The position numbers and the translations under genes were made by a program. The notes under the pieces are model-generated. The model searched no databases. It saw only the letters and a list, made by a program, of their open reading frames with translations, and was not told the origin of the DNA. A DNA stretch of 64,000 nt from Escherichia phage 235Ecol030PP: sequence record PP355091.1; one strand, written 5' to 3'. Positions 2 to 23,321 of the stretch are shown piece after piece (the first letter of the stretch is position 1; each line of letters starts with the position of its first letter).

Positions 2-2108
<2,107 letters not shown>

Positions 2109-4151: not shown

Positions 4152-4159
4152 TATAAATA
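4152..4159 (+). promoter_or_regulatory. late promoter TATAAATA upstream of gene 19 (distal)
   Basis: Exact TATAAATA. Confidence 0.6.
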
Positions 4160-4210: not shown

Positions 4211-4218
4211 TATAAATA
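4211..4218 (+). promoter_or_regulatory. late promoter TATAAATA upstream of gene 19 (proximal)
   Basis: Exact TATAAATA 15 nt before ATG; leader would be very short. Confidence 0.5.
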
Positions 4219-4232
4219 CTACAGAGGCTAAT

Positions 4233-4724
4233 ATGTTTGTAGATGATGTAACACGAGCGTTTGAATCTGGTGATTTTGCTCGACCTAACTTATTCCAAGT
4301 AGAAATTTCTTATCTTGGACAAAATTTTACGTTTCAATGTAAAGCCACTGCTTTACCAGCTGGTATTGTAGAAAAAATTCCAGTCGGATTTATGAACCGT
4401 AAAATTAACGTAGCAGGCGATCGTACATTCGATGACTGGACTGTTACAGTAATGAACGATGAGGCACATGATGCTCGCCAGAAGTTCGTTGATTGGCAAA
4501 GCATTGCTGCGGGACAAGGAAACGAAATTACTGGTGGAAAACCTGCAGAGTATAAAAAGAGCGCTATCGTTCGTCAATATGCTCGTGACGCTAAAACAGT
4601 AACAAAAGAAATTGAAATTAAAGGTCTGTGGCCTACTAACGTGGGTGAACTTCAATTAGATTGGGATTCAAACAATGAAATCCAAACCTTTGAAGTAACT
4701 CTTGCTCTCGATTATTGGGAATAA
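4233..4724 (+). CDS. 19: tail tube protein
   Basis: 163 aa as T4 gp19; follows sheath gene; late promoters upstream. Confidence 0.94.
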   Translation: MFVDDVTRAFESGDFARPNLFQVEISYLGQNFTFQCKATALPAGIVEKIPVGFMNRKINVAGDRTFDDWTVTVMNDEAHDARQKFVDWQSIAAGQGNEITGGKPAEYKKSAIVRQYARDAKTVTKEIEIKGLWPTNVGELQLDWDSNNEIQTFEVTLALDYWE

Positions 4725-17595: not shown

Positions 17596-18008
17596 TATTT
17601 TCCAGCCTCAAATGCTCGCATGTCTTGAATGTGCTTAATAGCAAATCCACGTGATTTAATAGCATCAAGAGCTCCGCTACAGAAATCTAATAAAATCCCC
17701 CAATATTGTAATGAAGTATCAACCTTTAAAACATCCTTATCGGCTGATAGAACTGTCTTCATTTCTGATTTCTCATAACGATCCATACTAAATTCATCAC
17801 CATCTCCTCGTCCCGAGTAGTAGTCTAATTTAGCTTTAAGAGCAACTTTTTTCTGCGCGTCAATTCTAAGCATTTCCTTTTTAATACTTGAATGCTTATT
17901 GAGCCATTTACTATATAACATCACATTATTAGCTGCTTCATACTGTAATTTAGTCGAATCTATAAACACATCTTTCTTCAATTCTTCTTGAAGATCTTCT
18001 AATCTCAT
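17595..18008 (-). CDS. uvsY: recombination mediator UvsY
   Basis: 137 aa as T4 UvsY; MotA-type middle promoter upstream. Confidence 0.92.
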   Translation of the reverse strand: MRLEDLQEELKKDVFIDSTKLQYEAANNVMLYSKWLNKHSSIKKEMLRIDAQKKVALKAKLDYYSGRGDGDEFSMDRYEKSEMKTVLSADKDVLKVDTSLQYWGILLDFCSGALDAIKSRGFAIKHIQDMRAFEAGK

Positions 18009-18048
18009 ATTGTTCTCTATTCAATTGTTATTGGATGGACTTAGATTC

Positions 18049-18076
18049 ATTATACCACGTTTATACGTGAAGCATT
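18049..18076 (-). promoter_or_regulatory. MotA-dependent middle promoter for uvsY
   Basis: Minus strand TAATGCTTCA (MotA box, 18068-18076), 13 nt, TATAAT (18049-18054). Confidence 0.55.
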
Positions 18077-18473
18077 ATACTCTATTACTGGAAGCCAGTT
18101 GCAGTTTTATCTGCTCAATATCATCAGGGTTATCGATGACCGAAAAGCGTATTTCTACTATCAGAGTATAATCATCATAAACTGGTATCACATTAACTGA
18201 TAATTTATCAATACGTGGCTCATAGTTTCTTACTGCGCTTTCAATATTGCGCTCAACTGTGTCAGCAGTAAGAGGAGTCATATTTTCAAAAAGCTGGTCT
18301 GATAAATCACATCCAAATTCAGGGTCAAACGGTCTTGAACCTTTTCTTGTTGTAATAATTCCCAAAAGACTGTTTTTAATTGACCTTAATCCAAGTGATC
18401 TTGAAACGTCTTTGTTCCAATCCATTTTCATTTCCGGGTCAATATCAGAATAAAGCTTATTAATATTTGCCAT
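18075..18473 (-). CDS. 25: baseplate wedge protein
   Basis: 132 aa as T4 gp25. Confidence 0.92.
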   Translation of the reverse strand: MANINKLYSDIDPEMKMDWNKDVSRSLGLRSIKNSLLGIITTRKGSRPFDPEFGCDLSDQLFENMTPLTADTVERNIESAVRNYEPRIDKLSVNVIPVYDDYTLIVEIRFSVIDNPDDIEQIKLQLASSNRV

Positions 18474-19099
18474 TATAGTAACTCAAAGAACTCTTTGAGA
18501 CCTCTTATTACGTGAGCATGGGTTTTTCCACACTCTGGACATTTAATTGGAACAGCCAAATAAACGGTAGGCTTTAAAAGCATATCTTTTATAGCTACAA
18601 TATCTGACTCTGTGATGATAGAATATAAATCTTCTAGTTCCTTTTCATTTAAGTCTTCAACTGGAATGCTTTCCCCGTTAGCATGAATCGTTTCTATGCA
18701 TGATACTATCATGTGGGCTATATTTTTATCATCAAAAATTTTAGGGTATCGGAATTTAATTTTAATGTCACCCAGTGTATACCAGAGGTCTTCTGGTGCA
18801 TCTATTTGTGTATGTAATAGATTTATATGGGTTGGTATTTCAGTTCCACAGGTGCACTTCCAGGAGTTTTCGTGATTAACTTCGCCGAGAGAATGTGCCC
18901 ATAAATGAATCAGCAGTAGTTCTGATTCTTGGCGGTTTAAATCTTTTGCATTTGTGCAGTCTTTGATTAGCTTTTTAACAATTACTTCTACAGAACCATT
19001 ATTTTTGGCAGTAATAAGTTCTAGATATTCTTTAAGCGTGAATGCGCGACAATTGATTATTTTAGAACCAACTCTCACATCAAATTTGTATTCATACAT
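18473..19099 (-). CDS. 26: baseplate hub protein
   Basis: 208 aa; GGAG SD; late promoter on minus strand at 19121-19128. Confidence 0.88.
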
Positions 19100-19120
19100 A
19101 TTTAGCTCCTTTATTTATCA

Positions 19121-19128
19121 TATTTATA
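19121..19128 (-). promoter_or_regulatory. late promoter (minus strand) for genes 26/25
   Basis: Plus strand TATTTATA, 22 nt from gene 26 ATG. Confidence 0.65.
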
Positions 19129-19132
19129 AATA
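19125..19132 (+). promoter_or_regulatory. late promoter for gene 51 operon
   Basis: TATAAATA overlapping the divergent minus-strand copy. Confidence 0.65.
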
Positions 19133-19149
19133 GAATAAAAGGAGCATCT

Positions 19150-19899
19150 ATGGCAAACATTATTCGTTGTAAATTACCAGATGGTGTTCATCGTTTTAAA
19201 CCATTTACGGTAGAAGATTATCGAGATTTTTTGTTAGTTCGAAACGATATAGAACATCGGTCACCACAAGAACAAAAAGAAATAATTACTGATTTAATTG
19301 ATGATTATTTTGGAGACTATCCGAAGACTTGGCAACCATTTATATTTTTGCAGGTATTTGTAGGGTCAATAGGTAAAACTAAAGTACCGGTCACATTTAT
19401 ATGTCCAAAATGTAAAAAAGAAAAGACAGTTCCATTTGAAATATATCAAAAAGAATTAAAGGAACCTGTTTTTGATGTAGCTAATGTTAAAATTAAATTA
19501 AAGTTTCCTTCTGAGTTTTATGAAAATAAAGCAAAGATGATTACTGAAAATATTCATTCTGTTCAAGTAGATGAAATTTGGTATGATTGGAAGGAAATTA
19601 GCGAATCAAGTCAAATAGAACTTGTTGATGCCATCGAGATAGAAACATTAGAAAAAATTCTCGATGCAATGAATCCTATTAATTTAACTCTACATATGTC
19701 ATGCTGTAATAAGTATGTAAAAAAATACACTGATATAGTAGATGTGTTTAAGCTATTAGTTAACCCAGATGAGATATTTACTTTTTATCAAATTAATCAC
19801 ACACTCGTAAAAAGTAATTATAGCTTAAATTCAATAATGAAAATGATTCCTGCTGAGCGCGGATTCGTATTAAAACTGATTGAGAAGGATAAACAATAA
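19150..19899 (+). CDS. 51: baseplate hub assembly protein
   Basis: 249 aa, divergent from gene 26 as in T4. Confidence 0.88.
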
Positions 19900-21074
19900 T
19901 GAGTATGTTGCAACGCCCCGGATATCCAAATCTCAGCGTTAAATTATTTGATAGCTACGACGCTTGGAGTAATAATAGATTTGTTGAATTAGCTGCTACT
20001 ATTACCACATTAACTATGCGGGATTCTCTTTATGGCCGAAATGAAGGAATGCTGCAGTTTTATGATTCTAAAAACATCCATACAAAAATGGATGGAAATG
20101 AAATAATTCAGATTTCTGTAGCTAATGCAAATGATATTAATAATGTTAAAACACGAATTTATGGATGTAAGCATTTTTCCGTGTCAGTAGATTCAAAAGG
20201 TGATAACATCATTGCTATTGAATTGGGAACTATTCATTCTATAGAAAATCTTAAATTTGGTAGACCATTTTTCCCTGATGCAGGTGAATCTATAAAAGAA
20301 ATGCTTGGCGTCATTTATCAAGACCGCACATTATTAACTCCAGCAATAAATGCTATAAATGCTTATGTTCCTGATATTCCATGGACTAGTACATTTGAAA
20401 ATTATTTGTCCTATGTAAGAGAAGTTGCTCTAGCTGTAGGAAGTGACAAATTTGTATTTGTATGGCAAGACATCATGGGAGTTAACATGATGGACTATGA
20501 TATGATGATAAATCAAGAACCATATCCAATGATTGTCGGTGAGCCATCTTTAATAGGTCAATTTGTCCAAGAATTAAAATACCCATTAGCATATGATTTC
20601 GTTTGGTTGACTAAATCGAATCCTCACAAACGTGACCCAATGAAAAATGCTACTATCTATGCTCATTCATTTTTAGATTCTTCATTGCCAATGATTACTA
20701 CGGGAAAGGGCGAAAACTCTATTGTAGTGTCAAGGTCAGGTGCTTATTCTGAAATGACTTATAGGAATGGATATGAAGAAGCTATTCGTCTTCAAACTAT
20801 GGCACAATATGACGGTTATGCTAAATGTTCTACTGTCGGTAATTTTAACTTGACTCCTGGTGTTAAAATTATTTTTAATGATAGTAAAAACCAATTTAAA
20901 ACAGAATTTTACGTTGATGAAGTTATCCATGAATTATCCAATAATAATTCAGTAACTCATCTATATATGTTCACTAATGCAACGAAACTGGAAACAATAG
21001 ACCCAGTTAAGGTTAAAAATGAATTTAAATCTGATACTACCACTGAAGAAAGTAGTTCTTCCAATAAGCAATAA
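19899..21074 (+). CDS. 27: baseplate hub protein
   Basis: 391 aa as T4 gp27. Confidence 0.92.
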
Positions 21075-21552
21075 AGAAGTTTCTATTCCTAAAATGGGTC
21101 TTAAACATTATAACATTTTAAAGGATGTTAAAGGTCCTGATGAAAATTTAAAACTTCTTATTGATTCTATATGTCCGAATTTGTCACCAGCAGAAGTTGA
21201 TTTCGTTTCTATTCATTTATTGGAATTTAATGGAAAGATTAAATCTCGTAAAGAAATAGATGGCTATACTTATGACATTAATGATGTTTATGTATGCCAA
21301 AGATTGGAATTTCAATACCAAGGAAATACATTTTATTTTAGACCTCCTGGAAAATTTGAACAATTTTTAACGGTGAGCGATATGTTATCTAAATGCTTGC
21401 TTAAGGTCAACGATGAAGTTAAAGAAATTAATTTTCTTGAGATGCCAGCATTCGTTTTAAAATGGGCAAATGATATTTTTACAACTTTAGCAATTCCTGG
21501 CCCTAATGGTCCAATAACTGGAATTGGCAATATTATTGGATTATTTGAATGA
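21019..21552 (+). CDS. 28: baseplate hub distal protein
   Basis: 177 aa as T4 gp28; overlaps gene 27 by 56 nt in another frame. Confidence 0.82.
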
Positions 21553-23321
21553 AAAAGCCACAAGAAATGCAAACGATGCGTAGAAAAGTTATTTCAGATA
21601 ATAAACCAACACAGGAAGCGGCTAAATCCGCTTCCAATACTTTATCTGGACTTAATGATATATCTACGAAATTGGATGATGCTCAAGCTGCTTCTGAATT
21701 AATAGCTCAAACTGTCGAAGAAAAATCGAATGAAATAGTTGGAGCAATTGGTAACGTAGAAAGCGCAGTGAGTGATACTACTGCCGGTTCTGAGTTAATT
21801 GCTGAAACTGTCGAAATTGGCAATAATATTAATAAAGAAATCGGTGAATCACTCGGAAGCAAATTAGATAAATTAACGAGTTTATTAGAACAAAAAATTC
21901 AGACAGCTGGAATTCAACAAACAGGAACCAGTTTAGCCACAGTTGAAAGCGCTATTCCTGTTAAAGTCGTTGAGGATGATACTGCTGAATCTGTGGGTCC
22001 TTTATTACCGGCTCCCGAAGCAGTTAATAATGATCCTGACGCTGATTTTTTCCCTACCCCTCAACCAGTTGAACCCAAACAAGAATCGCCAGAAGAAAAA
22101 CAGAAAAAAGAAGCATTTAACTTAAAATTATCTCAAGCTTTAGATAAATTAACAAAGACTGTTGATTTTGGATTTAAGAAATCCATTTCAATTAGTGATA
22201 AAATATCAAGCATGTTATTTAAGTACACCATAAGTGCTGCTATTGAAGCTGCTAAAATGACTGCAATGATATTGGCTGTTGTTGTTGGAATAGACCTTTT
22301 GATGGTTCATTTTAAATACTGGTCAGATAAATTTTCAAAAGCCTGGGATTTATTTAATACTGACTTTACTAAATTCTCTAGCGAAACCGGAACATGGGGT
22401 CCTTTATTACAGAGCATCTTTAGTTCTATTGATGAAATTAAAAAATTCTGGGAAGCGGGAGATTGGGGTGGATTGACAGTAGCTATTGTTGAAGGGCTTG
22501 GAAAGGTTCTTTATAATTTAGGAGAACTTATTCAATTAGGTATGGCTAAATTATCTGCTGCAATTCTTCGAGTCATTCCTGGCATGAAGGATACTGCTGA
22601 TGAAGTAGAAGGAAGAGCACTAGAAAATTTCCAAAATTCTACTGGAGCATCTCTCAATAAAGAAGACCAGGAAAAAGTTGCAAATTATCAAGATAAACGA
22701 ATGAACGGAGACCTTGGTCCGATAGCAAAAGGATTAGATAAAATTGCTAATTGGAAAACTCGTGCATCTAATTGGATTCGTGGTGTAGATAATAAAGAAG
22801 CACTAACTACCGACGAAGAGCGTGCAGCAGAAGAAGAAAAATTAAAGCAGCTTTCACCGGAAGAAAGAAAAAATGCTTTAATGAAGGCTAATGAAGCCCG
22901 TGCCGCAATGATTCGCTTTGAAAAATATGCTGATTCAGCTGATATGAGTAAAGACTCAACGGTTAAATCAGTTGAAACTGCCTATGAAGACCTTAAAAAA
23001 CGGATGGATGACCCGGATTTAAACAATTCACCGGCAGTTAAAAAAGAACTTGCTGCTAGATTTTCTAAAATTGATGCTACTTATCAAGAGCTCAAGAAAA
23101 ATCAGCCTAATGCCAAACCTGAAACTTCTGCTAAATCGCCAGAAGCGAAACAGGTCCAGGTTATTGAAAAGAACAAAGCACAGCAAGCTCCTGTTCAGCA
23201 AGCATCTCCTTCAATCAATAATACTAATAATGTTATTAAGAAAAATACTGTCGTTCATAATATGACACCCGTAACGAGCACAACTGCTCCTGGTGTATTT
23301 GGCGCGACTGGAGTTAATTAA
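21549..23321 (+). CDS. 29: baseplate hub / tail length determinant
   Basis: 590 aa as T4 gp29; ATGA overlap with gene 28. Confidence 0.92.
   Translation: MKKPQEMQTMRRKVISDNKPTQEAAKSASNTLSGLNDISTKLDDAQAASELIAQTVEEKSNEIVGAIGNVESAVSDTTAGSELIAETVEIGNNINKEIGESLGSKLDKLTSLLEQKIQTAGIQQTGTSLATVESAIPVKVVEDDTAESVGPLLPAPEAVNNDPDADFFPTPQPVEPKQESPEEKQKKEAFNLKLSQALDKLTKTVDFGFKKSISISDKISSMLFKYTISAAIEAAKMTAMILAVVVGIDLLMVHFKYWSDKFSKAWDLFNTDFTKFSSETGTWGPLLQSIFSSIDEIKKFWEAGDWGGLTVAIVEGLGKVLYNLGELIQLGMAKLSAAILRVIPGMKDTADEVEGRALENFQNSTGASLNKEDQEKVANYQDKRMNGDLGPIAKGLDKIANWKTRASNWIRGVDNKEALTTDEERAAEEEKLKQLSPEERKNALMKANEARAAMIRFEKYADSADMSKDSTVKSVETAYEDLKKRMDDPDLNNSPAVKKELAARFSKIDATYQELKKNQPNAKPETSAKSPEAKQVQVIEKNKAQQAPVQQASPSINNTNNVIKKNTVVHNMTPVTSTTAPGVFGATGVN

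Follow-up and report, generated by a model that had tools for sequence, protein, structure and literature searches.

A 12-bp palindrome between the divergent baseplate genes 26 and 51 of Escherichia phage 235Ecol030PP is a very probable bidirectional T4-type late promoter

In the 64,000-nucleotide stretch of DNA from Escherichia phage 235Ecol030PP that was analysed (PP355091.1; referred to as the window), the short intergenic region between the divergent genes 26 and 51 was found to contain the perfect 12-bp palindrome TATTTATAAATA at positions 19121–19132. Judged from its sequence and conservation, this palindrome is very probably a bidirectional T4 late promoter, composed of two exact gp55 boxes on opposite strands with their first four bases shared. 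The box TATAAATA of the predicted gene 51 promoter (P51), corresponding to -13 to -6 in the convention of PMC1524935, is located on the plus strand at 19125–19132, and that of the predicted gene 26 promoter (P26), likewise corresponding to -13 to -6, is located on the minus strand at 19121–19128 (read 19128→19121). Both conform with the consensus in 8/8 positions and overlap by 4 bp at 19125–19128, where the first four bases of each box read TATA. The palindrome itself has no strand and would form the common core of the proposed bidirectional promoter.

The palindrome is flanked by two baseplate transcription units running in opposite directions. Gene 26 (baseplate hub, 208 aa; 18473–19099, minus strand) is the first gene of the leftward unit and is followed by gene 25 (18075–18473, minus strand), which overlaps the end of gene 26. 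Gene 51 (baseplate hub assembly catalyst, 249 aa; 19150–19899, plus strand) is the first gene of the rightward unit and is followed by gene 27 (19899–21074, plus strand) and then gene 28, with overlapping ends in the 51-27-28 run. With the gene 26 start codon ending at 19099 and gene 51 beginning at 19150, the gap (19100–19149) measures exactly 50 nt, and the local order on the plus strand is ...cat ATTTAGCTCCTTTATTTATCA TATTTATAAATA GAATAAAAGGAGCATCT atg.... A comparison over 1551 bp revealed an identity of 98.9% to the best-matching records and of 98.7% to T4 records, the sequence of the 50-nt gap being identical to that of T4. In the T4 record, the same two ORFs are genes 26 and 51, with genes 25 and uvsY on one side and gene 27 on the other. 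The initial annotation, which had described TATAAATA on both strands of the 12-mer with a 4-nt overlap, in a 50-nt gap between divergent genes named 26 and 51, is borne out by the positions of the two boxes, by the ORF ends at 19099 and 19150, and by the CDS annotations of the T4 records that are 98.7% identical in this region. Because of the same identity to T4, the genes of the gp55/gp33/gp45 late transcription machinery would be expected in this phage.

Three terminator-like hairpins with T-rich tails were observed on the plus strand at 18318–18339, 18482–18499 and 18780–18798, antisense to genes 25 and 26, compared with 0.5 expected from shuffles.

In T4 late promoters, an 8-bp box precedes the start by about one helical turn and an A/T-rich segment lies downstream; they lack a -35 element and give rise to late transcripts in either direction; about 50 T4 late sites have been listed, not all of which are proven to be active in vivo (PMC2988020). 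With the box spanning -13 to -6 (PMC1524935), the start of the 51-27-28 transcript is predicted at the A in position 19138 on the plus strand, yielding a 12-nt leader (AAAGGAGCATCT), and the start of the 26-25 transcript at the A in position 19115 on the minus strand, yielding a 16-nt leader (AATAAAGGAGCTAAAT). The predicted starts flank the palindrome back to back at a distance of 23 bp, so that the predicted mRNAs would have no sequence in common. Each predicted start falls just upstream of the Shine-Dalgarno sequence of its own gene, which is GGAG at 19141–19144 on the plus strand for gene 51 and GGAG at 19105–19108 on the minus strand (CTCC on the plus strand) for gene 26, and both boxes are separated from their ATGs with the Shine-Dalgarno sequence in between. 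The six bases 3' of the boxes are GAATAA on the plus strand and TGATAA on the minus strand, each being A/T in 5/6 positions. As in T4-type late promoters, each box is an exact match lying a short distance upstream of a baseplate hub gene on the same strand and is followed by A/T-rich DNA; as in bidirectional promoters, the melting elements overlap on opposite strands and the predicted starts lie on either side.

On the minus strand, a one-mismatch box, GATAAATA, is additionally present at 19112–19119; a single nucleotide separates it from the exact P26 box upstream, and the first bases of the two 8-mers are 9 nt apart. Transcription initiated from this sequence would begin within the Shine-Dalgarno sequence of gene 26. 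GATAAATA is restricted to the Tequatrovirus gap and is absent from the other genera compared.

Counting of exact TATAAATA boxes in the whole window gave 18 copies, compared with 8.5 expected, and this number was reached in 0/100 shuffles. The majority of these boxes (12/18) sit in intergenic positions 14–34 nt upstream of an ORF start on the same strand, and the box-to-ATG spacings at the palindrome, 17 nt for gene 51 and 21 nt for gene 26, are within this pattern. Between positions 18000 and 21600, no exact TATAAATA box besides the palindrome pair was found on either strand. The 12-mer TATTTATAAATA is present in a single copy in the window, where the shuffle expectation is 0.08 copies and at least one copy was obtained in 8/100 shuffles; on its own, this single occurrence is weakly significant. 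A chance origin of TATTTATAAATA was rejected because the 12-mer is conserved across genera, and not by this weak window statistic.

Elsewhere in the window, two exact TATAAATA boxes are located on the plus strand at 4152–4159 and 4211–4218, 59 nt apart and upstream of a 163-aa ORF (4233–4724); they may be tandem late promoters. By its size and its place after a 659-aa ORF, the 163-aa ORF is probably gene 19 (tail tube).

For the analysis of conservation, relatives were picked by gp51 protein similarity alone, from 73% down to 28% identity, with representatives from different genera, and the 26/51 gap was read in each. The exact 12-mer was present in 11/13 genus-level representatives with divergent genes, the lowest gp51 identity among the carriers being 35% (Proteus phage PM2). 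Carriers were found in Tequatrovirus, Mosigvirus, Karamvirus, Jiaodavirus, Gaprivervirus, Marfavirus, Winklervirus, Dhakavirus, Serratia phage 4S, Bragavirus (Proteus) and Hadassahvirus (Acinetobacter). Among them, the remainder of the 26/51 gap has diverged, except for both Shine-Dalgarno sequences: that of gene 51 is GGAG or GAGG at the same place in all relatives, and that of gene 26 is kept in relatives. A second sample, obtained by a gp51 profile search of IMG/VR, comprised 33 distinct gaps with divergent genes 26 and 51, and the exact 12-mer was present in 28 of these.

Alignment of 29 distinct sequences on the palindrome yielded an anchored profile, in which the 12 palindrome positions are invariant by construction, since the exact 12-mer was required. 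Information content drops to 0.1–0.8 bits in the four or five flanking positions to the left and right, which are nearly random. The sixth position outward, corresponding to the predicted +1, is T on the left (A on the minus strand) and A on the right, in 26/29 sequences on both sides. Within these 29 sequences, no conserved -35 element was found, and the positions past the box are unconserved except for a run of A around +1. Such symmetric +1 conservation would be hard to explain without use of both orientations. With both arms and both predicted +1 positions conserved across genera, both orientations appear to be under selection.

Junctions deviating from the palindrome were also informative. 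In the Krischvirus-type gap of 69 nt, the palindrome is broken, and TATAAATA on the plus strand is accompanied by a separate ACTAAATA on the minus strand; because this palindrome-less lineage has a separate box for each strand, both directions seem to need a promoter. Aeromonas phages of the 44RR type have a shorter palindrome, TATTTAAATA, at 26/51, and in an IMG/VR lineage (L178) the palindrome is replaced by boxes that face each other in the order TATAAATA-N7-TATTTATA. Every sampled junction with divergent genes has its own box for each direction. Pseudotevenvirus and Slopekvirus have a rearranged gene order, 54>51>26>25, with all four genes on the same strand, and neither a divergent gap nor the palindrome is present.

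In Pseudotevenvirus Banach (L014 1174–1200) and Slopekvirus VAC66 (L015 1173–1200), the sequence upstream of gene 51 has no late-promoter box and instead contains a G+C-rich hairpin followed by a T run, GGGGCGAAAGCCCCTTTT, which looks like a terminator.

The invariance of the 12-mer would also be expected under a dimeric DNA-binding protein, and perfect dyad symmetry is a usual trait of operators bound by dimers. The main or an additional role of the palindrome might be to bind a dimeric protein of phage or host origin that regulates both baseplate units, such as T4 DsbA, which is reported to bind A/T-rich sites overlapping two late promoters (PMC2988020). We consider this reading very unlikely. 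All conserved bases are covered by the two consensus boxes, and conservation stops at the box edges. For DsbA, binding with micromolar affinity is reported, and its gene is dispensable (PMC2988020). Furthermore, variant lineages track their own late consensus, as evident from Aeromonas phage Aeh1 with TATTTAGCTAAATA and its consensus CTAAATA, which fits a promoter and not a fixed operator.

It is highly improbable that only one orientation is a promoter, the other box having arisen incidentally because TATAAATA is nearly symmetric and the gene downstream of it being expressed from elsewhere. Partial symmetry comes cheap, since the first four bases of the motif are self-complementary, but full symmetry costs four extra specific bases per arm, and it is the full 12-mer that has been kept across genera. 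On either side of the palindrome the predicted +1 A has been retained, the region from 18000 to 21600 offers no further exact box from which the remaining gene could be served, and lineages without the palindrome have a separate box per direction; each of these observations argues for the bidirectional late promoter instead.

An early or middle bidirectional sigma-70 promoter with TATAAA/TATAAT-like -10 hexamers is barely conceivable. Symmetric -10 elements are described in bacteria, where the enriched distances between starts include 23 bp (Warman et al., bioRxiv 10.1101/2020.01.31.928960), but a consensus scan of 2 kb revealed 10 sites compared with 10.5 expected, and a sigma-70 promoter was rejected with matches at this chance level and none on the palindrome. 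The neighbouring genes are, moreover, baseplate (late) genes, and T4 early and middle transcripts are all of one polarity (PMC2988020), which would render a rightward sigma-70 unit anomalous.

A structural RNA or terminator was rejected, as a modest hairpin (19085–19165, both strands; -14.7 and -13.0 kcal/mol, z ~ -2.3) arises only in hypothetical read-through RNA and the predicted transcripts carry one arm each. In such read-through RNA across the gap, GCUCCUUU would pair with AAAGGAGC and bury the ribosome site, a pairing that is possible because the two Shine-Dalgarno sequences face each other. A resembling scheme of ribosome-site burial in read-through RNA is known for T4 lysozyme and soc.

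A bidirectional late promoter at 26/51 is already known: public sources contain both its prediction and its annotation. Scarlato, Storlazzi, Gargano and Cascino, in Virology of 1989 (171:475), reportedly mapped overlapping promoters for divergent transcription of the T4 baseplate gene cluster. The GenBank record of phage Lutter (MT682714) contains two 8-bp 'promoter' features (locus L001 1222–1229, minus strand, and 1226–1233, plus strand) that equal the halves of the homologous palindrome. For RB69, the late promoters Pl:118620(+) and Pl:118672(-) were predicted by Nolan et al. 2006 (PMC1524935, Additional File 5); the RB69 26/51 gap, in which gene 26 starts at 118622 and gene 51 at 118670, contains both of them and the same 12-mer. 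Promoter features are absent from the feature table of the T4 reference record AF158101. Genes 25, 26 and uvsY are reported to belong to overlapping transcription units (Gruidl et al. 1991). Together with the exact boxes, their spacing to the ATGs and their conservation, the MT682714 features and the RB69 prediction speak in favour of the proposal, made in the initial annotation, of two overlapping divergent gp55-type late promoters, predicted for 26-25 and 51-27-28, respectively.

Comparison with the T4 P26/P51 pair revealed an identical gap, identical genes and box positions and the same 4-bp overlap, with no promoter differences; the only distinction is that the present phage is a close relative of T4 and not T4 itself. 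In Aeromonas phage Aeh1 (NC_005260, L139 404–417), the 14-bp palindrome TATTTAGCTAAATA contains two back-to-back copies, one per strand, of CTAAATA, the late consensus of that phage. This is the location for which Nolan et al. 2006 (PMC1524935) predicted the divergent promoters Pl:122785(+)/Pl:122835(-). Unlike at the 26/51 site, the flanking genes are gp4 and gp48, and the 7-mers abut without overlapping. The T4 gene 4/gene 53 junction is similar in that divergent late genes are separated by a short gap of 47 nt with an exact TATAAATA per strand, but its geometry is the opposite: the boxes, located on both strands at L137 5350–5372 (AF158101 77349–77371), face each other in the order TATAAATA-GATAATA-TATTTATA, so that the predicted starts cross and the leaders overlap by ~5 nt. 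It is this facing arrangement that lineage L178 shows at 26/51.

Symmetric -10 elements often drive divergent transcription in bacteria (Warman et al., bioRxiv 10.1101/2020.01.31.928960), and by analogy the 26/51 site can be regarded as the gp55 counterpart of such bidirectional promoters. Both have a near-palindromic melting element on both strands with starts on either side, and the 23-bp spacing predicted here is an enriched class among the bacterial promoters, where 18 bp is the commonest. The sigma factor differs, the T4 site using gp55 and an 8-bp box without a -35 element, and, unlike the bacterial promoters, the T4 late promoter has as its activator a sliding clamp that tracks along the DNA and follows a polarity rule. 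Reciprocal stimulation in the bacterial system works via sigma-70 R451 and position -18, for which no gp55 counterpart has been demonstrated.

In uncultured T4-like phages of IMG/VR, the same 12-mer together with two Shine-Dalgarno sequences was also observed between other divergent late structural genes (L022, L024, L052, L027 and about nine similar loci, L050, L077 and L073). The gene pairs include a gp4-like head closure protein with a gp48-like baseplate tail tube cap, a head-tail adaptor with a 233-aa protein, and a tail tube with a tail-tube-like protein. These loci derive from a pattern scan that required both Shine-Dalgarno sequences and is biased by construction, so that no frequency can be read from it; conservation frequencies were taken from the gp51-anchored sample instead.

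For the proposed mechanism, E. coli RNA polymerase with gp55 and gp33, activated by the gp45 sliding clamp, would open the DNA outward from the dyad centre in either direction, with a rightward start at about 19138 giving the 51-27-28 transcript and a leftward start at about 19115 giving the 26-25 transcript. In the open complex as determined by cryo-EM, the DNA is melted from -12 to +2 (PMC7892883). By this rule, the melted span would be 19126–19139 for P51 and 19114–19127 for P26, with an overlap at 19126–19127 at the dyad centre. The activated complex reaches further upstream, gp33 being near -35 to -39 and gp45 beyond (PMC2988020), and a polymerase at either promoter would cover the start of the other. 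Since the melted regions overlap and the activated complex would cover the opposite start, simultaneous occupancy of P26 and P51 is very unlikely, and competition of the 26-25 and 51-27-28 operons at one site is plausible on steric grounds.

Late activation follows the nicked strand, with the clamp at the upstream end of the complex (PMC2988020). According to this polarity rule, oppositely oriented clamps would serve P26 and P51, and a clamp of given orientation probably activates one direction only, the choice being set by the orientation of the arriving clamp. The competition idea, as put forward in the initial annotation, gives a partial picture, for it leaves out the clamp-orientation rule, which predicts different gp45 populations for each direction. 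Since activation by the gp45 clamp is limited to the promoter with the loading site on its non-transcribed strand, the palindrome could be imagined as an orientation switch, at which either 26-25 or 51-27-28 would fire per clamp visit, never both, the choice being made by the daughter duplex or nicked strand from which the clamp originates; we regard this idea as tentative and rather doubtful.

For T4 itself, nothing new is added by these data, which provide a textbook-style case of a short, near-symmetric element serving two operons from a 12-bp core; the breadth of conservation and the recurrence at other divergent late pairs are tidy additions and not surprises. The 26/51 site is a clean natural substrate for promoter-interference and clamp-polarity tests. 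The orientation switch, if true, would make the ratio of the two hub-assembly operons dependent on replication geometry, and it might explain why most T4-like genera have settled on the geometry with a 4-bp overlap, and not on a looser spacing, and why this geometry is found again at other divergent late pairs. Kept together with both predicted start positions from coliphages to phages of Acinetobacter, Proteus and Serratia, the 12-mer can be used as a reliable annotation signature for bidirectional late promoters, which makes the comparison of modest use.
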